This document shows positions 12,511 to 21,364 of a stretch of 64,000 bases of DNA, piece after piece. The notes beneath the pieces were generated by a model. That model was not told where the DNA came from and made no database searches. It saw only the letters and a list, made by a program, of their open reading frames with translations. This DNA is from Gemmatimonas sp. (GTDB taxonomy: Bacteria > Gemmatimonadota > Gemmatimonadetes > Gemmatimonadales > Gemmatimonadaceae): NCBI GenBank assembly GCA_965279375.1, contig OZ257156.1:4736001-4800000 (forward strand), written 5' to 3'. Each line of letters starts with the position of its first letter. The first letter of the stretch is position 1. A program made the translations under genes and the position numbers.

Positions 12511-15500
12511 ATGGCTCGTCCTCGTGCTCGTCTTGCCGTTCCGGTTCCCTGGCTCGTCGACGGCGGCATTCCGCCCACGCGCGATGCCCAGTCGCGCCCT
12601 TTGCTGCGTTTGCAGACGCTCGGGGCTTCCGTGGTGCAGTGCGGCGAGCTGCGCATCGGGCCGTCGGCCGGAGTGCTCTTCGCCATTCTCGTGCGACTCA
12701 CGTATGCGCCGGGCATGCAGGTCGCGCGTGATGAGCTGGTGCATCTCGTCTGGGGCGGGCCCGACTCCGCGCGTCGCCGTGCCAGCTTGCGACAGGCGCT
12801 CTACAAACTGCGGAGCGTTGGCGTGCGCGTCGTGCTCGAGGGCGGGATGGTGCGCCTCGATGCCGCGCAGGTGGCGCGCACGTTTGCCAGTGACCGGAGC
12901 GCGACGCACTTCGAGCGTGATGTCACGCGAGGACACGAGCCGTTCGGTCCGTTCCTGCCGGGCTACGCTGCGCCAACTGCCGCGTTCGACGAGTGGATGG
13001 AGACTGAGCGTGAGAGTATTCACGCGGAGATCCGTCGCGTCCTCGTGGAGCAGTTGCGTGCGCGACGCGAGCGTGCCGATTGGACCGGGGCGGAGGCGTT
13101 GGCGCGATGGCTGTTGCAATTCGATCCACTGCACGAGGATGCGACGCTGACGCTGGCCGAGTGCACCATGCTCGCGGGGGCCAAGCTCGAGGCCATTGCG
13201 ATCCTCGATCGCTATCTCGCGGAGATCGGGCCCGGTGCGGGCGATGTGCGTCTTCCCGCCGCGCAGCTGCGGCGTCGCTTCGTGGAGGCGACACGCGGCA
13301 CGCTCTCCTTTGCGCCGACTGAACGGCACTTCGTGGGGCGCGAGCAGGAGCTGGCCGATCTGACGCTGGCGATGCGTCGCGCGCGATGGCGGGATGGGAG
13401 CGCCGTGCTGTTTCACGGTGCGTCGGGCATCGGCAAGTCCCGGTTCGCGCACGAGGTGACGAAGGTCGCGACGATCGAGGGCGTGCGCGCACTGCACGCG
13501 TGCTGTCGGGAGAGCGATGGCATGCGCACGCTGGCCCTGTTCCATGACATGCTGCCCGAGTTGCTGTCCATTCCGGGCGCATTGGGATGCACGCCGGAAA
13601 GCATGGCCACGCTACAGCGTTTAGTGGGACCGCCACCACGACGCAGCGTGGGTCAGTCGATCGCGCCGGCGAGCGGAGAGACCGCGCGAGGCGAGCCCGC
13701 GGAACCGGCGATTGGGGACGCCGTCGCTGTGGATGCGGACGAAGGGCGCAACGCCAGCGTCGGTGCTGCATCCGAAGCCGAGCTCCCGCCGGTCGCGGGT
13801 GAGCACGACGGGGGCGAGTCAGTCACACCGCGGGAGCCGCTGCCGATGGCCGGATCGATTCGACGGGCGTTCGTTGACCTGATGGCCGCGATCTCTGACG
13901 AACGGCCCGTGCTGCTGGTGATCGACGACGCGCATTGGATGGACCTGGCGTCCTGGGATGTGTTGGCGGACATCATCGATCGCATTTCGGCGCTGCGACT
14001 GGTGGTTCTGGTGATGTCGCGTGAGCCGCACGCGCGCCCCACGCGTCCGGAGCGTGTGCCGACGACGCTCCGGGTACGCCCGATGCCACCCTTGTCGGCC
14101 GAAAGCGGTGCGCAGCTGACGCGCTTGATCGGGAACGACCTCTCCGCGCCGGTAAGTGATTCGCTCTGCGCGTGGTTCGTGGAGGCGAGCGAGGGGAGTC
14201 CGCTCTTTCTTCGCTCGTTGGTGCAGCACTGGATCGAGACCGGCGAAGCGGGCGGCGTTCCGCCAACGCTGGTTGAGGTCATCGAGCAGCGGCTGACGAA
14301 GTTGTCGCCGGAAGCGCTACGGGTTCTGCAGACGGCGGCGTTGCTGGGGGAGGAGGCGAGTGTGGAGAGCACTCAGCATGCGCTCGATTTCTCAACTGCG
14401 AACATTCTGGACTCGTTAGATGAGCTTGCCCGCGCAGGGATGCTCAGAGCCTCTGAGCTCGACCGACTCGTCGCGCAAGAGCTGACCGGTAAGGCCGCAC
14501 TTCGCCGACTCACCGAGGCTTCTCGACGGCTACTCAGCCTGCGAGTCGCTGAATCGATTCAGACACGAGCGAATCTGTGTGCGCTTGGCGACGGCGGAAG
14601 ACTCGCTGCTGCAGTCGTACGAAACTTCTTGGGAGCGGGGTTACACGAGCGCGCGACTACGACCGCAGTCGATCTGGCGGAGACGTTTTTACGAAGCGGG
14701 CTTCCTGCTGAGGCACTACTCGTTTGCGAGTGCGGCGAAGGATTTGTACGCTCCGGTGTCTCGGGGGCGCGACTACGACGACTCGAGATGGAGGCGCTCT
14801 ATCAATGCGGCTGCCATTCTCGGCTGTTGACCGTCGCGAGCGCCAGCCAGACTGCATTCAGTGTGACGTCCAAGTGGGACTCGCACTATCCTTTGGATGT
14901 CCTGCGATATATCGAATCGAGTTCCACGAGCGGTCGAATCACTGACTACGGCGATCTGTGCGCGCGCGCCGTACTGATCGCAGAGAGCGAGATCATCCCT
15001 CCAGACATCAGACTGCGGGCGTCCATCACCGCAATTCGCGTTGCGAGCCACGGTATCGACTCCGCACTACCTGAGAGAGCGTATAGGGCGGCGACAAACG
15101 TGGCAGAGCGCACCGCAAACCAATTCGATGCTCAGGTCACGGCGGCACTTTACTACCACACGGCGTTTGGCAGGCCGGAGGCCGCGATCGATGCTGCAGA
15201 GTGCATAGTCGAACGCATTGCGCCGACCTTGCCAGGTCCCGAGAAGATCGCCTTGCTCGCAGATGTTGCCTACGCGTTTCGCGTCTTAGGCAGGACCGAT
15301 GACGCACTCCGCTTGTTCGAACACGTTCTTGCGGACGCGAAGTCCGACAGAATCTGGCGCACAGCTGGAGTGGCAGCTTGGTACTTGTCACTTATGGCTC
15401 TCGACAGCGATGCAGAAATCGCGCTTGCGAAGCAGTGGATCGAGCAGTGTGAGGAGCTAGCGGTATCAACTCAGGATGAGCTACTGCTCCATATCGCCGC

Positions 15501-15885
15501 TCAGCAGAGCGCGAGGATCGCGACGCTGGAAGGCGACATCAACAGGGCGCTCTCTCGCAACTCGGCATCGAAATGGCTGTTCGTTCAAGCCTCGCACCCG
15601 AAGCGTGTCGCGTCAGAACTCGCCTTGGACCTGTTCATCGCGATCACCACGCGAAATCAGCGCTCTATCGTGGAATTGCTCCCATCGGCCGCGAACAGCC
15701 TCGCGAACTTGAGTGGCGCGCTTGGTCAGGATTTCTTGGCAACACAGGTAATACGAGGGAGTCTCGCGGCCGGGAAGCCGGAGGAGGCGCGTCGCGTCTG
15801 CGGTAGCTATTTGGCTCGGCGAAGAGAACAAAGTCGACATCCCGGCTACTTGATGTCGGCGGTCTCCGCGGCCGCTGCGAGTTAG
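12511..15885 (+). CDS. Large transcriptional regulator: winged-HTH + BTAD + STAND (AAA_16-like) ATPase + C-terminal helical/TPR-like repeats
   Basis: RDELVHLVW..RASLRQALYKLR (wHTH), FDEWMETER..DPLHE (BTAD), FVGREQE, GASGIGKS (Walker A), LLVIDDAHWMD (Walker B) and GSPLF motifs. Confidence 0.85.
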   Translation: MARPRARLAVPVPWLVDGGIPPTRDAQSRPLLRLQTLGASVVQCGELRIGPSAGVLFAILVRLTYAPGMQVARDELVHLVWGGPDSARRRASLRQALYKLRSVGVRVVLEGGMVRLDAAQVARTFASDRSATHFERDVTRGHEPFGPFLPGYAAPTAAFDEWMETERESIHAEIRRVLVEQLRARRERADWTGAEALARWLLQFDPLHEDATLTLAECTMLAGAKLEAIAILDRYLAEIGPGAGDVRLPAAQLRRRFVEATRGTLSFAPTERHFVGREQELADLTLAMRRARWRDGSAVLFHGASGIGKSRFAHEVTKVATIEGVRALHACCRESDGMRTLALFHDMLPELLSIPGALGCTPESMATLQRLVGPPPRRSVGQSIAPASGETARGEPAEPAIGDAVAVDADEGRNASVGAASEAELPPVAGEHDGGESVTPREPLPMAGSIRRAFVDLMAAISDERPVLLVIDDAHWMDLASWDVLADIIDRISALRLVVLVMSREPHARPTRPERVPTTLRVRPMPPLSAESGAQLTRLIGNDLSAPVSDSLCAWFVEASEGSPLFLRSLVQHWIETGEAGGVPPTLVEVIEQRLTKLSPEALRVLQTAALLGEEASVESTQHALDFSTANILDSLDELARAGMLRASELDRLVAQELTGKAALRRLTEASRRLLSLRVAESIQTRANLCALGDGGRLAAAVVRNFLGAGLHERATTTAVDLAETFLRSGLPAEALLVCECGEGFVRSGVSGARLRRLEMEALYQCGCHSRLLTVASASQTAFSVTSKWDSHYPLDVLRYIESSSTSGRITDYGDLCARAVLIAESEIIPPDIRLRASITAIRVASHGIDSALPERAYRAATNVAERTANQFDAQVTAALYYHTAFGRPEAAIDAAECIVERIAPTLPGPEKIALLADVAYAFRVLGRTDDALRLFEHVLADAKSDRIWRTAGVAAWYLSLMALDSDAEIALAKQWIEQCEELAVSTQDELLLHIAAQQSARIATLEGDINRALSRNSASKWLFVQASHPKRVASELALDLFIAITTRNQRSIVELLPSAANSLANLSGALGQDFLATQVIRGSLAAGKPEEARRVCGSYLARRREQSRHPGYLMSAVSAAAAS

Positions 15886-17207
15886 GCCACTGCCTGCGTT
15901 TTCTGGCCCTTTGCTCTTTCGATGATCTGAGTGAAGGACAGAATGCTGCTCTGCGAGTCGGCTGGGGAGAACAGTTGCGGATACAGCGGACTGCTTAGAA
16001 GCGCGTCGCAAATCATAGGATCGAACTGCCTACCCCGAAACTTGACCAATTCAGCGCGAACCTCTGTCTCCGTCATTGCCTTTCGATACGCTCGATCGCT
16101 GGTCATCGCGTCGATCGTGTCTGCAAACATGATGATTCGAGAACCCAGTGGAATTGCATTTCCTGCAATCTTGTCAGGGTAGCCAGTACCGTCCCAATTC
16201 TCATGGTGGTGTCTCACCGCGGGCACGATATCGTGAAACTCCGACAACTTTGCAACGAGCTCAGCGCTCTTGATCGGGTGGAGCTCCATTATCGCGCGCT
16301 CTTCATTGGTTAGACGACCAGGCTTGCTAAGGATTGGGCGAAAAATCTCGTGAATCTTGCCCACGTCATGCAGTAGAGCGGCGATTGCGATTCGCTCGAC
16401 CTCCGGACCGGAGAGACCAATCGCACGCGCAATAATTCTCGAATATCGAGACACGCGCTGCGAATGACCGGAGGTGTACGGGTCGCCATACTCGACGGTG
16501 TGCACGAACAGCTCAAGCAATTCTCTGTTCGTCGTCGCCAGCTGGTGCCGCACTTGGTAGAGCACTCGAAAGCCAACAGAAAGCACGGTCATCGAGAGAA
16601 ATCCCCAAACTCCCCAGTCGACGAATGCTCTCGCAAACAAGTAGACGATCGGAATCGCGACAAGATCGAGCAAGAGCGACTGAGAGTTTCCAGTATACCA
16701 ACAGCGAACGATGCTCTTGCTTTCAGCGATGCCGACCGCGGTTGCGACGGAGAAAGTATTTACGAGAAGAAACGCGAGGACCGCAGCGGAATGCGGCACC
16801 AACTCAAAGCGCACGTCCAGCTGAAGCGACTTGCCGCCGAGCGACAGGTAGAGCAGGCTCGCAACTGCGGCGGCGAGGACGAACTGAGCGATGTTAAACA
16901 GCCGCTTGATCGTCGGCTTGGGCCGGCGTAGTTCGCCGAAGGCCGCCCCAAGCCCGACCATTGCAGCTGTAGCCCACGACGGGTAGAGGACGAGCGCCGT
17001 CAGATAGGGAATGAAGGAAATCTCTCCCAGCGTATTTCCTTGCACTCGGTACCGGAATTGCGAACCAAGTAGTCCGAGCAGCGCGTAACAGAAGGATCCC
17101 AATAGCAGCGCGACGTCAATCGAAGGCTGCTGGAGATACAGACAAGCCAGCGCGGCAGCCGCAGCTGCCACGATCGCATACACGTAGGCGATCACGCTTG
17201 TCTTCAT
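15882..17207 (-). CDS. Membrane-anchored HD-GYP cyclic-dinucleotide phosphodiesterase
   Basis: About 215 aa multi-TM N-terminus, then DPYTSGHSQRV, LLHDVGK, HHHENWDGTGYP and DTIDAMTSDRAYR. Confidence 0.92.
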   Translation of the reverse strand: MKTSVIAYVYAIVAAAAAALACLYLQQPSIDVALLLGSFCYALLGLLGSQFRYRVQGNTLGEISFIPYLTALVLYPSWATAAMVGLGAAFGELRRPKPTIKRLFNIAQFVLAAAVASLLYLSLGGKSLQLDVRFELVPHSAAVLAFLLVNTFSVATAVGIAESKSIVRCWYTGNSQSLLLDLVAIPIVYLFARAFVDWGVWGFLSMTVLSVGFRVLYQVRHQLATTNRELLELFVHTVEYGDPYTSGHSQRVSRYSRIIARAIGLSGPEVERIAIAALLHDVGKIHEIFRPILSKPGRLTNEERAIMELHPIKSAELVAKLSEFHDIVPAVRHHHENWDGTGYPDKIAGNAIPLGSRIIMFADTIDAMTSDRAYRKAMTETEVRAELVKFRGRQFDPMICDALLSSPLYPQLFSPADSQSSILSFTQIIERAKGQKTQAVA

Positions 17208-17246
17208 GAGTCTTGCAAAGTGGCGCCCCCGCCGTCCTAGCTCAAA

Positions 17247-17318
17247 TCAACCCCAGACTTTAGCATCCGCCAAAGCGAACGACATAATCGCGTTCACGAG
17301 CTGGGCCAGAATTCCCAT
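17247..17318 (-). CDS. 23-aa small peptide MGILAQLVNAIMSFALADAKVWG (putative signalling precursor)
   Basis: Below the track length cut-off. ATG at 17318 is preceded by GGAGGTGA (17325-17332) with a 6-nt spacer, and the stop lies 39 nt before the HD-GYP start. Confidence 0.75.
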   Translation of the reverse strand: MGILAQLVNAIMSFALADAKVWG

Positions 17319-17515
17319 GTTGCGTCACCTCCCATCGGGGTAAGTCACGCACGTCCCGCTCGGGGATCGCACGTGCTTTAACGAGGTTGGCTCCGCTCCT
17401 CAAACTTGGCCTGCCCGCTCAGCTCCGCTCTACCGGGAGACGGGGACGTTTTGTGAGTATCGTCTATGGCTGACGATGAAGGGTGAACGGCATGGGCGCG
17501 TGAACCACGCCCGGA

Positions 17516-18421
17516 TTATCGATCAAGTTGCATCCAGCGATTCGTTGCATTGAGCACTGCGAGCACACTGCTCGTCTCAGCGCTCTCCTCAACTTCACAG
17601 CTTCCGGTCAAGAGCACTGTGTCGCGACCGTCGCGCGCCGCAATGCTGACAAAGACGAACTCTCGATCAAACGCGTCCACCACTTGCGATCCTTCCAATG
17701 TCAACGCGCGCGCCCGAACCGACGTCGGCCCCAACGCTTCCACAATCGCCAATACCGTCGCACGTGCCGCGAGATCAATGCGAGAACGCTCGCTCGATTG
17801 ACCCTTCGCCTCTCCGGCAAATGCCCGCGCACCCTGCGACAGCGTCACTCGACACGTCAGCCCGCGCTCACGCGACCGACGCAACTCCACATCCTCGAAC
17901 ACCAACACTCGACGCGCCAGACCGCCCGCCTCACGGCTCCCGTCCGCACCCTCGCGCGCTAAGCTCGGCTCCGGCGCCCGCGATGAGGCCGCCGCCGGCA
18001 TGGAAGCAGACGCCGCGGACAGCGATGGCGCAACCGCTCCGGCGGCAAATGACTGGGACGAACTAGAGGGCGATGCCGACCCGGAAGGGGAGGCCGGCGG
18101 AATGAAGACCGTCGTCGGCGACTTGGCCGCTGACGGCACATCGTTCGCACGATTCGGGTCCAGCGTCGTCGCGATCGAGATCTTGCGGTGATTCACGCGC
18201 AACCCGAGCTGCGCAATCAAGGCACTCTCGATATTCCGCACCGTCTGCTTCGGAGCCACGGCGTCCGTCGTCAAGACGTGCACCTCGTCGATAGCCCCCG
18301 CGTCACTCGGCACAATCCGAACAGACAATACGCCCGGGAGCGTGGCGATCAGCTCCTCGGCGCGACGGATGGGAAGGACACTACCCGCGATCGCGCCTGA
18401 CGGCGCAAACGGCGGGTTCAT
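17516..18421 (-). CDS. Hypothetical two-domain protein with Pro/Ser/Ala linker
   Basis: N-domain IDEVHVLT..PKQTVRNIESAL..NHRKISIA, low-complexity linker, then an alpha/beta C-domain. Start at 18421 chosen to avoid overlap with the upstream gene. Confidence 0.75.
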   Translation of the reverse strand: MNPPFAPSGAIAGSVLPIRRAEELIATLPGVLSVRIVPSDAGAIDEVHVLTTDAVAPKQTVRNIESALIAQLGLRVNHRKISIATTLDPNRANDVPSAAKSPTTVFIPPASPSGSASPSSSSQSFAAGAVAPSLSAASASMPAAASSRAPEPSLAREGADGSREAGGLARRVLVFEDVELRRSRERGLTCRVTLSQGARAFAGEAKGQSSERSRIDLAARATVLAIVEALGPTSVRARALTLEGSQVVDAFDREFVFVSIAARDGRDTVLLTGSCEVEESAETSSVLAVLNATNRWMQLDR

Positions 18422-18529
18422 GCCGAAATTCACTGGAATCGACAGGAAGGACTCCGCAGGTGGATCGGACCAGCGTTGGTCGATCTGTTCTCGACTGTCA
18501 CAATATGTGGTCGAGTTCGCTGGTCGGCA

Positions 18530-18545
18530 AGCCAGAATAGTGCCC
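18530..18545 (-). promoter_or_regulatory. Candidate sigma54 (-24/-12) promoter
   Basis: Minus strand GGGCACTATTCTGGCT has GG-N10-GC spacing and GGCAC, directly after a sigma54 activator gene. Confidence 0.5.
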
Positions 18546-18581
18546 AAACCATTGTATGACATGCAGCTACCAGATTGCACC

Positions 18582-20255
18582 TCAACCTTCGTCGAGATCC
18601 AGCCCTGCCCCCCCCTCGTATTCTCGCAATTTGCGATACAAAGTCCGCTCGCCAATCCCCAATCGCTCGGCCGCTTTACGTCGATTCCCGCTCGCATCCC
18701 GGAGCGCCGCCTCGATGGCCGTGCGCTCGATCTCGGCCATGGTCATCCCAGGCCCCAAGGTGATCACGGTCGGCGGCGGCTCCTCATCACGCGGCGCGAT
18801 CCCGCGCAGCCCCCCCATCACAGAGCCGATCTCCACCAAGCCAGCTGCCGCGCCAGCCGTCCCGCTGCGAACGTCCCCCATCCACCCCGGCGCCATCATG
18901 CGAGGGTCCACGCGCGGATCCACCCGCGACTCCTGATCCATCCGGCGCCGCAACTCCTCCACCTGCAGCTTCAGCTCGACAAGCGAGCGTACGATAAACT
19001 CGAGCTCACGCCCCTGCGCACGCTCACCCTCGCGCACGATCGGACCGACATGGACGGGCAGTAGCCGACGTCCGCCCGCATCGCGGATCGCGCGAGGAAT
19101 GTCCTCCGCCACGATCTCGCGCCCGGGCGCCAGCACGACCATGCTCTCGACCAGATTGCGCAGCTCACGCACGTTGCCGGGCCACGGATACTCGACCAGC
19201 AACGCCAATGCGTCCGCCGACAGCCCATGAAACGGTCGATCATGCATCCGTGAGAATTCGGCGACGAATCGACGCACCAAGAGCGGAATATCGTCACGCC
19301 GCTCACGCAGAGGCGGCAGATAGATCCGCAGCACATTGAGCCGGTAGTACAGGTCGGCGCGGAAGCCACCCTCCTCCACATGCTCGCGCAACGGACGGTT
19401 AGTCGCCGCCACCACGCGCACGTCCACCGGAATCGCCTGCCCGCCGCCCACGCGCGTCACTTCACGCTCTTCGAGCACGCGCAACAGCTTCACCTGCGTG
19501 CTCGACGGCACCTCACCGATCTCGTCGAGAAAGAGCGTGCCCGTGTCGGCCAACTCGAACCGGCCAAGCCGACGCTCCGCCGCGCCCGTGAACGCGCCCT
19601 TCTCGTGCCCGAACAGCTCGCTCTCGAGCAACGTGTCCGGCAGCGCGCCCACGTTCACCGCGATGAACGGCTTGCCACGGCGCGGACTCAAGCGATGAAT
19701 CGCGCGCGCCACCAGCTCCTTGCCAGTGCCGCTCTCACCCTCGATCAGCACCGTGCTCGACACCGGCGCGATCTGCTCGATCTTCACCAGCACTTCGCGA
19801 ATGGCCTCCGACTCACCGACCAATCCGGTCAGCTGCGCGAGTCGCTGCCGCTCGAGCCGCCGACGGATCCCGTCCACGACCTCGTCGAGCGCGATCGGCT
19901 TGCTCCAGGTCTCCACGTAGCCCACGTCGCGCACACGCTCCTGCACCACAGGATCGCTCACGTCGGTGAAGCCCACCACCGGCACACCATCCCACAGCTG
20001 CTGCCGCACCAACGCCACGTTCGCGCTGTCGAGCAGCGCGCCCGTCAGCACGAGCACATCCGGACGCGCGCGACGCAGATCGCCGCGCACGTCGTCCATC
20101 GGCGAAATCGTGACGGTGGTGATCCCCAACCCTTCGAGCGCCGCATTGAGCCGCACAGCCGGCTCCACGTCGGTCATCAAAATCGCGACGACGCCCGACT
20201 CGTTGTCCTCCGTACTGCCGCGCCGCACGACCGCGGTGCGCGACCGTTCGCTCAC
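18582..20255 (-). CDS. Sigma54-dependent Fis-family activator with atypical receiver-like N-terminus
   Basis: [39 protein letters not shown] and a C-terminal HTH. GTG start overlaps the gcvT stop. Confidence 0.92.
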
Positions 20256-21364
20256 GCCTTCCCCGCCCGCTTGTAGAAGGGCAACGCGACGACACGCGCC
20301 GGGACCGTCTTGCCGCGAATGTCGAGGTCGAACGTCGTCCCGACCACCGCCGCGGCCGCTGGCAAATAGCACGTACCGATCGGGATGCCGAGCGTGGGAC
20401 TCATGGTGCCGCTGCGCACTTCGCCGAAACGCACGCCACCGTAGGTCACGCCGTGGCCGTGCCGCGGAATGGCTCGTTCGTCGATCGTGAAGCCAACCAG
20501 CTTGCGATCCGTGCCTTCGGTGTGCTGCCGCGCGAGCACATCACGACCGAGGAACGGCTCCGACTTGCCGAGCTTCACCAGCCACGAGAGACCGGCCTCG
20601 ATCGGCGTCACCGCATCATCCAGCTCGTTGCCGTACAGGCACAACCCGGCCTCGAGACGCAGCGTATCTCGGCAGCCCAGCCCCGCTGGTACCACCTTGC
20701 CGGTGGCCATCAGCGCCGACCAGATCGTGCCCACATGCTCCGAGGCGCAGTACAACTCCCACCCCAGCTCACCCGTGTAACCGGTGCGCGAAATGATGCA
20801 CGGCACGCCTGCGACGGTGCCTTCGGTGAACCAGTAGTATTTCACCCCGCCCAGCGGCACGCTCGACAGCGACTGCACGATTGCAGGAGCATCAGGCCCC
20901 TGCACGGCCACCAGCGCCGTCGCGTCGGACACATCGACCATCGAGCAATCGAATCCCTCGATGTTCGCCTTAAGATGCGCGATGTCCTTGTCCTTGTTGC
21001 TCGCGTTGATCACGAGCATGAGCTGGTCAGCCATGCGATAGACGAGCAGGTCATCGACGATGGTGCCATCCTCGCGCAGCAGCGTCGAGTACTGCACCTG
21101 CCCAACCGCAAGCGCCGCGACGTCGTTGCTCGTGACGGAATTGACGAACCGGATGGCGTCCGGCCCCTTCACCATCACCTCGCCCATGTGCGACACATCG
21201 AACAGGCCGCACGCCTCGCGCACGGCCTTGTGCTCCGTGGAAATGCCCTGCGGATAGTTGACCGGCATTTCGTAGCCGGCAAACGGGACGATCTTCGCGC
21301 CGAGCGCGACATGAACGTCGTGGAGCGGAGTGCGCTTCAGCGCACCGTCAGTCGTAGCAGTCAT
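20252..21364 (-). CDS. gcvT: Glycine cleavage system aminomethyltransferase T
   Basis: LKRTPL, GLFDVSHMGE, SRTGYTGE and GLGCRDTLRLEAG motifs. Confidence 0.97.
   Translation of the reverse strand: MTATTDGALKRTPLHDVHVALGAKIVPFAGYEMPVNYPQGISTEHKAVREACGLFDVSHMGEVMVKGPDAIRFVNSVTSNDVAALAVGQVQYSTLLREDGTIVDDLLVYRMADQLMLVINASNKDKDIAHLKANIEGFDCSMVDVSDATALVAVQGPDAPAIVQSLSSVPLGGVKYYWFTEGTVAGVPCIISRTGYTGELGWELYCASEHVGTIWSALMATGKVVPAGLGCRDTLRLEAGLCLYGNELDDAVTPIEAGLSWLVKLGKSEPFLGRDVLARQHTEGTDRKLVGFTIDERAIPRHGHGVTYGGVRFGEVRSGTMSPTLGIPIGTCYLPAAAAVVGTTFDLDIRGKTVPARVVALPFYKRAGKA

Follow-up and report, generated by a model that had tools for sequence, protein, structure and literature searches.

The 23-codon reading frame at positions 17247..17318 on the minus strand of the window (the whole 64,000-nt stretch of Gemmatimonas sp. 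DNA that was analysed) is a real, conserved micro-gene and belongs to a module of four parts: a two-domain upstream protein, a structured RNA leader, the peptide itself and a MASE9-HD-GYP phosphodiesterase. Judged from sequence comparisons, the module occurs in at least three phyla, the same gene order recurring in Bacillota and Armatimonadota. We propose, with middling confidence, that the product of the frame is a precursor, processed to a short peptide for export (DAKVWG in this case), and that MASE9 would sense this peptide to set the hydrolysis of c-di-GMP. The gene, its synteny and conservation, the RNA pairing and the folds we regard as established, and from them we infer the steps of a mechanism that we consider plausible. 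The range of the module across phyla, its occurrence as a propeptide, the two folds and a matching RNA contig are new here; in the literature searched, which covered few subscription papers, we found no account of it.

The frame is read from 17318 to 17247 and encodes MGILAQLVNAIMSFALADAKVWG followed by a stop codon. Residues 1-17 are amphipathic or hydrophobic, a cut is predicted after Ala17, and the remaining tail, DAKVWG, carries the conserved Trp22. Six nucleotides upstream of the ATG lies GGAGGTGA (17332..17325, minus strand), which is complementary to the 3′ end of the 16S rRNA of the same genome and belongs to an extended Shine-Dalgarno (SD) sequence with a conserved CGC (17322..17333, minus strand), where GACGC is kept beyond what complementarity to the anti-SD needs. 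Strong SDs are rare in this genome; by crude start calls, GGAGGT precedes the first ATG in 11 of 2755 long ORFs and GGAG or GAGG in 377 of them. ORF and leader are present as a single copy in the complete genome of 5.31 Mb. No match above cut-off was obtained for the peptides or the upstream protein in Pfam and NCBIfam, and ESM Atlas matches were unnamed clusters only.

With the HD-GYP protein as query, 110 loci were gathered, some of them duplicates: 61 related genomes supplied 30, and genome contigs the best 80 of 541. Of these MASE9-HD-GYP loci, 104 had at least 140 nt upstream and could be assessed for SD and ORF. The SD was present in 103/104, followed in 102/104 by an ATG or GTG ORF of 16-28 codons that was called without any bonus for Trp or hydrophobicity. 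The exceptions were L051, with a TTG start and 35 aa, and L099, from which the element is absent. In L099:1-260, devoid of SD and ORF, we noticed an apparent transposase end, presumably IS3-type, just upstream of the HD-GYP gene, where an insertion may have disrupted the leader. Trp stands within the last two residues (a Trp or Trp-x end) in 84 of 93 distinct ORFs, the other nine having no terminal Trp. The initial annotation had pointed to frame, SD and Trp as the things to follow in relatives; since all three are conserved, the loss of frame or SD that would have spoken against it is not seen. A pN/pS of 0.55 over 27 ungapped 23-codon ORFs, with third codon positions the most variable, indicates purifying selection on the amino acids of the peptide and conservation beyond chance.

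Beyond what that annotation described, the locus also holds the RNA leader, its enclosing helix and the partner genes. Downstream lies the gene for the 441-aa MASE9-HD-GYP membrane phosphodiesterase (15882..17207, minus strand), the proposed receptor, and upstream a gene for a protein of about 301 aa (17516..18421, minus strand), preceded by that for a sigma-54 activator whose start is uncertain (18582..20372, minus strand). The order upstream gene, leader, peptide, HD-GYP is retained in that the upstream gene is present in 54/54 Gemmatimonadota-type loci with at least 1.5 kb upstream, with the sigma-54 activator in 50/54, and upstream gene, box and SD occur together in 9/10 further Gemmatimonadales regions. 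One of those nine (L220:2814-3100) has a small ORF that lacks the usual stop and Trp and reads through, perhaps because the copy is broken or wrongly assembled. Two modules (L212 and L017) occur in genome G019; their peptides differ, and each module has an upstream protein and a MASE9-HD-GYP gene of its own. Gemmatimonadota-like modules were also seen on contigs labelled Acidobacteriota, Chthoniobacterales or Propylenella (L048, L057, L073, L076, L078, L090, L102), by mis-binning or transfer. The GC content drops to 54-59% over positions 14800-17800, compared with 65% genome-wide; this part covers the C-terminal half of the convergent regulator discussed below, the HD-GYP gene and the leader, and homologues of these genes diverge fast too.

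The 130 nt upstream of the ATG are highly conserved and form an ordered series of elements, all on the minus strand. A small hairpin (17459..17477), seen mainly in the genus-level alignment, is followed by the 5′ arm of a helix that encloses leader and ORF and that we call P1 (17439..17448), a first box of AGCG pentamer repeats in which the count of 5-nt units differs between species (17415..17430), a second, near-invariant AGCGGAGC box (17385..17398), and a hairpin with an AGCG-type loop and a conserved AGC...GACT base (17343..17377). Between the last box and the start codon the median distance is 73 nt. The 3′ arm of P1 (17224..17233) follows the stop codon, with 18 nt between the end of its G-run and the HD-GYP ATG. 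AGCG(G/A) occurs about 3.6 times per 140 nt, compared with 0.6 in shuffled sequences. P1 arms of the Gemmatimonadota type pair better with their own partner than when swapped (score 30.1 over 79 loci vs 23.1 over 918 swapped pairs, kin not being independent), and at most P1 positions several pair types alternate among the 76 anchored loci, which is covariation. In the same 76 loci G-U exceeds A-C (71 vs 28), and an RNA on this strand is therefore indicated. For the inner hairpin, the anchored pair count exceeded that of shuffled sequences only modestly, as bulges move the register, and the single-sequence fold z-score was only −1.65. A scan of 17000-17700 against Rfam gave none at the gathering threshold and one chance match (E 3.2) on the opposite strand.

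This arrangement resembles the leaders read by TRAP, HutP and CsrA, which are repeat-binding leader regulators: here too, short purine-rich repeats precede the gene, one of them in a hairpin loop. The repeat differs, being AGCG(G/A), and TRAP is absent, PF02081 giving no match in the 99.95% complete genome while the B. subtilis positive control matched. CsrA is encoded in the genome, but the motif is a poor fit, GGA being broken in some first boxes and the loop copy often not being GGA. DNA-level repeats serving the neighbouring regulator were rejected as well, because L018, L039 and L095 carry inserted 5-nt units and the boxes are not evenly spaced between loci; the extra units in some species suggest recognition of RNA rather than DNA. 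From co-occurrence, the upstream protein may bind the leader. Its C-terminal domain, joined by a linker to an N-terminal alpha/beta domain, resembles the Leu/Ile-binding regulatory domain of LeuA/CMS (Foldseek E 1.5e-4), and the N-terminal domain has a common alpha/beta fold (CDF-CTD, the C-terminal domain of CzcD, Z 9.2; BolA, Z 7.5). The family comprises 1815 clusters at 50% identity, and we treat this protein as the candidate leader-binding regulator.

A phylum-wide motif search was set aside as evidence, being too loose, with the reversed control also matching often. Among viral contigs, the 18 motif matches were all low-complexity pentamer repeats and three protein scans found no relative; phage records likewise gave none. 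Such xAGCG pentamer repeats, without the rest of the element, were seen in non-coding parts of many viral contigs (L112-L129). Several near-identical intergenic repeats with a GAGCGGAGCG motif, which we take to resemble integron attC-type repeats, were noted in G000:C1 at about 1254419-1353581 (minus strand) and 905598 (plus strand).

A covarying helix around a micro-gene directly ahead of an enzyme gene could be a cis-acting switch. P1 would open or close when the ORF is translated or the upstream protein binds, and this would gate the HD-GYP gene at the level of transcription or translation, with little importance for the peptide as such. The covariation and the G-U excess agree with this, as do the position of the 3′ arm, which ends at a median of 14 nt before the HD-GYP start, the lack of an evident SD between arm and start in most loci displayed, and the at least five T within 10 nt after the arm in 26/76 loci. 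Other details fit poorly. The G-run sits at SD distance (5-12 nt) in only 29/92 loci and is 18 nt away here, no terminator was called at this locus, and the HD-GYP gene of L130 is preceded by a separate SD, about 140 nt past the helix. A lone Trp codon at the end of the ORF does not amount to a tandem attenuator tract and is not kept in other phyla, and both the signal-peptide anatomy and the purifying selection on amino acids would be left unexplained. As the main function we therefore consider such a gate quite improbable; it could operate alongside the propeptide reading.

In the predicted fold the SD lies in paired RNA. Together with the small hydrophobic peptide, the strong SD and the 5′-3′ helix, this recalls type I toxin-antitoxin loci such as hok or aapA, in which the mRNA of a hydrophobic toxin peptide is locked by 5′-3′ pairing. 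We found one antisense sigma-70-like match at 17260-17288, probably a chance site; it is not conserved, its −10 hexamer lies on codons that differ in relatives, and 0.6 such matches are expected by chance. With a single copy, fixed synteny with signalling genes across phyla and no Rfam match, a locus of this kind is extremely unlikely.

Transcript data came from a freshwater metatranscriptome (run X1), in which the sole contig identical to the 15000-20500 region was one of 198 nt at 17230-17427, which extends from inside the 3′ arm of P1 to a point 12 nt away from the 5′ arm. By our own arithmetic, chance would put a random 198-nt piece of the 2.9-kb query within the P1 span in about 1 case in 100. 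No identical contig covered the remainder of the 5.5-kb region in this run, an absence from which nothing follows. The contig is a weak hint of a discrete small RNA, because it is a single contig from one run, at a depth of 2.7, and contigs carry neither strand nor end information.

The distribution of the module outside Gemmatimonadota was traced through the upstream protein, which matched a Subdoligranulum record with the same gene order plus a DUF5317 gene, and likewise a Natranaerobius record. A metagenome scan with distant homologues of this protein added the best 80 of 575 loci, giving 82 in all; 14 were too short, leaving 68 assessable. Among these, a box was found in 61, a peptide call in 62 and both in 60, and in six the upstream protein stands without AGCG leader or peptide (L173, L175, L197, L202, L210, L155). 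In the 43 loci with at least 1.8 kb downstream, 38 had box and peptide, and all 38 continue into an HD-GYP gene; 14 of them also carry DUF5317, for which we found no paper in the literature searched. The downstream proteins tested matched HD_5 in 20/20 cases and MASE9 in 11/20, ten of the latter above the cut-off. Source labels include Armatimonadota and Syntrophomonadaceae, examples being Subdoligranulum, Natranaerobius, a Syntrophomonadaceae and an Armatimonadota protein. In the Natranaerobius record (L211:4968-6766), the annotation splits both the membrane HD-GYP gene and the DUF5317 gene in two and omits the peptide.

A P1-type enclosing helix is kept in these loci with unrelated sequence (score 34.1 over 59 loci vs 22.7 over 391 swaps). 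Gemmatimonadota peptides and leaders gave no sequence alignment with those of other phyla, with no nhmmer match for the leader profile and no Rfam match among 14 of the foreign loci; the equivalence therefore rests on position and gene order, motif, architecture and partner genes. All 57 distinct peptides from other phyla have a basic n-region, a feature that was not selected for, and all 57 show a small-residue site of the G-G-A/S-G-A/A-S-A type near residue 20; because peptides were called through a hydrophobicity filter and the cut was located by a motif search, the cut-site and peptide counts are partly circular. Their tails are usually aromatic and 4-10 aa long, and polar and of 18-27 aa in two groups; polar tails of this length cannot belong to a membrane anchor. 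We also noted that these two groups have propeptides of 38-47 aa with long polar or proline-rich tails (L152-L154, L158-L160, L162, L164, L166, L168, L172; and L137, L139, L142). By their sequence features, the Bacillota and Armatimonadota peptides look like classical Sec propeptides.

The Gemmatimonadota peptides share part of this anatomy. In the 23-aa peptide, A15-L16-A17 follows the h-region and places small residues at −1 and −3 of the predicted cut. Five places before the Trp, at −1, a small residue stands in 67/85 peptides, compared with a 29% background in the h-region, and D or E follows four places before the Trp in 63/85; small −1 and −3 residues are present in 60/85 by a relaxed rule and strict A-x-A in 4/85. 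Around the fixed Trp the tails are hypervariable, with 77 different ones among the 85 peptides. The initial annotation had suggested A-x-A cleavage releasing DAKVWG. Release of this tail gains indirect support from the conserved small residue followed by D/E and from the classical signal peptides of the other phyla, and its strict A-x-A form does not. A second cut after A-D-A, which would leave KVWG, is not conserved, the position three before the Trp being variable. The doubt raised there about Sec export for want of a basic n-region is upheld in Gemmatimonadota because residues 2-5 are neutral or acidic in 88/93 peptides and basic in only 5/93; in the present peptide the n-region has a net charge of 0.

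This want of a basic n-region and the rarity of strict A-x-A argue against the propeptide reading in Gemmatimonadota, as does a weaker h-region, with a lower mean hydrophobicity (0.59, against 0.75 in other phyla) and a more amphipathic character (moment 0.34 against 0.22). The missing basic n-region and the amphipathic helix would suit a peptide that stays uncut as a single-helix membrane partner, binding and modulating MASE9-HD-GYP in the producing cell, for which small membrane regulators of sensor kinases of the MgrB-PhoQ type offer a parallel. The terminal Trp would suit the membrane interface. A helix of this kind gives no account of a small residue and then D/E conserved at a fixed distance from the Trp, and in other phyla the corresponding peptides carry cleavable signal peptides of the classical kind, followed in some cases by a long polar tail. 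We consider the uncut partner unlikely, and propeptide processing remains our preferred reading.

Under the propeptide reading the candidate receptor is the downstream protein, which on its sequence is a MASE9-HD-GYP phosphodiesterase: Pfam gave MASE9 with 33 bits (cut-off 24.3) and HD_5 with 121 bits, and the translation contains HDVGK and HHENWDGTGYP, which we take to be intact HD and GYP motifs. The MASE9 model (pLDDT 92) was compared by VIA with Foldseek-ranked chains only, and the top 21 matches were all ECF S-components (Z 12.6-9.8, rmsd 3.2-4.4 Å, 153-190 aligned residues). The best reached Z 12.6 at 3.3 Å over 153 residues and the next unrelated fold Z 7.3, a Z of about 12 being near what helical bundles can reach by chance; by Foldseek, the similarity to S-components was weak (best E 0.006). 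Residues ~28-203 thus model onto the ECF S-component fold over the whole domain, the fold of FolT, BioY, RibU, ThiT, PanT and NikM/CbiM. MASE9 differs from these in being only 8-18% identical and fused to a signalling enzyme, and no transport role is implied. The pocket in which S-components bind their small ligands opens outwards.

MASE9 has been described as a widespread sensor whose ligand is unknown, and the part of that account available to us suggests ligand binding within the membrane (10.1101/2021.11.05.467447), which would also suit an uncut helix. TM1467 and HdgA share the MASE9-HD-GYP architecture of the downstream protein (10.1101/2021.11.05.467447; PMC6205966). HdgA is reported as membrane-bound, poorly expressed and without a mutant phenotype, the authors suspecting a missing activating signal (PMC6205966). 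In contrast to the module, the available parts of both accounts mention no upstream peptide, RNA leader or S-component fold, and the word "peptide" occurs 0 times in the bioRxiv main text.

Pairing of peptide and MASE9 was approached in two ways. A co-fold of the full-length 35-aa L051 peptide with its own MASE9 scored 0.47, compared with 0.00 for the best control, a mark reached by 116/157 solved and 2/215 mismatched pairs, with only 18 solved pairs and both mismatches at or below 0.60. Runs agreed in at least 96% of contacts and the partner pLDDT was at least 68, with no interface given. The model lends weak support to the pairing; it cannot separate a tail in the pocket from helix packing, because it was run on a homologue, gave no interface and used controls that were not matched hydrophobic helices, and its use of the uncut peptide is in keeping with the membrane-partner alternative. 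Tail similarity tracks MASE9 (r 0.41) more closely than the TPR region of the convergent regulator (0.22), the HD domain (0.15) or the C-domain of the upstream protein (0.07), the pairs not being independent. The h-region also tracks MASE9 (r 0.48), as expected if the uncut helix were the partner. Matched rates might suffice to explain this co-variation, which is weak evidence for pairing.

A cytoplasmic receptor, as in RRNPP/ComRS systems, would be either the convergent wHTH/BTAD-like-AAA-TPR regulator (12511..15885, plus strand) or the LeuA-type domain of the upstream protein, whose Leu/Ile-binding regulatory fold invites the idea. Pfam gave AAA_16 and TPR for the regulator, the wHTH/BTAD label being our own reading, and its gene is present in 61/66 Gemmatimonadota-type loci with at least 1.5 kb downstream. 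Two accounts that also treat the export of ComS, SHP and Phr peptides describe D or E as the first residue of mature SHPs too, and report that ComS can be active in unexported form (PMC6211226, PMC7564271). The TPR regulator, conserved as a neighbour in Gemmatimonadota only, has a homologue in 0/43 long loci from other phyla (tblastn E 1e-4), against 38/38 for the membrane HD-GYP, and with MASE9 held constant the tail tracks neither the TPR region (partial r −0.04) nor the C-domain of the upstream protein (−0.09). We regard a cytoplasmic receptor as distinctly improbable.

The organization nevertheless invites comparison with known peptide signalling. As in the parts consulted of accounts of Agr and ComC-ComD quorum sensing, a propeptide micro-gene stands beside a multi-pass membrane sensor and the mature part is variable (PMC7564271, PMC6211226). 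The module differs in that its sensor is a MASE9 HD-GYP phosphodiesterase with an S-component fold and not a histidine kinase, and in having a structured RNA leader and a dedicated upstream protein; among the four flanking genes (sigma-54 activator (EBP), upstream protein, MASE9-HD-GYP and AAA-TPR regulator) there was no AgrB or ComAB-type gene and no AgrC. Like the precursors of Phr/PapR/NprX, SHP and ComS (RRNPP), those of the module have 16-47 aa, a signal-like N-terminal part and a short C-terminal mature peptide; their tails start with D/E, a trait shared with SHPs, and the Bacillota forms have leaders of the Sec type. The L130 peptide gave E 0.19 against Phr_nterm, below the cut-off. In contrast to RRNPP systems, no RRNPP receptor is conserved across phyla and the constant partner is a membrane enzyme; the adjoining AAA-TPR gene is much larger and gave no RRNPP family match. 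In its way of working the module resembles Agr/ComC-type or Phr/SHP signalling, yet it does not belong to those systems, because kinase and AgrB are missing and an RRNPP receptor is not shared across phyla.

In the mechanism that we propose for the propeptide, the operon transcript would be cut or terminated so that a P1-closed unit of ~225 nt accumulates as a stable small mRNA, yielding peptide in excess of receptor. The N-terminal 17 residues would bring the precursor to the membrane, where a cut after Ala17 would free DAKVWG on the outer side, by Sec and signal peptidase I in Bacillota and Armatimonadota, the route in Gemmatimonadota being left unspecified. The Trp-bearing tail would then bind the S-component-like pocket of the co-encoded MASE9 and change c-di-GMP hydrolysis by HD-GYP, its variable residues conferring kin specificity. 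In the weakest step, the upstream protein would bind the AGCG(G/A) repeats and tune the output. More tentatively still, and leaning against it ourselves, we raise the fuller idea of a cross-phylum peptide communication of a new type: a secreted peptide of 4-27 aa would be read by an S-component-derived receptor wired to c-di-GMP breakdown, and its micro-mRNA would be excised as a stable end-paired RNA under the control of a dedicated RNA-binding protein whose amino-acid-sensing, LeuA-type domain accompanies recognition of AGCG(G/A) repeats.

We know of no peptide pheromone in these phyla. If the proposal is true, MASE9 gains its ligand and peptide pheromone signalling enters the diderm Gemmatimonadota. 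The module would add an RNA motif absent from Rfam and a large orphan protein family, and, if the co-encoded peptide is the MASE9 ligand, peptide signalling would be linked straight to c-di-GMP turnover without a kinase or an RRNPP protein.
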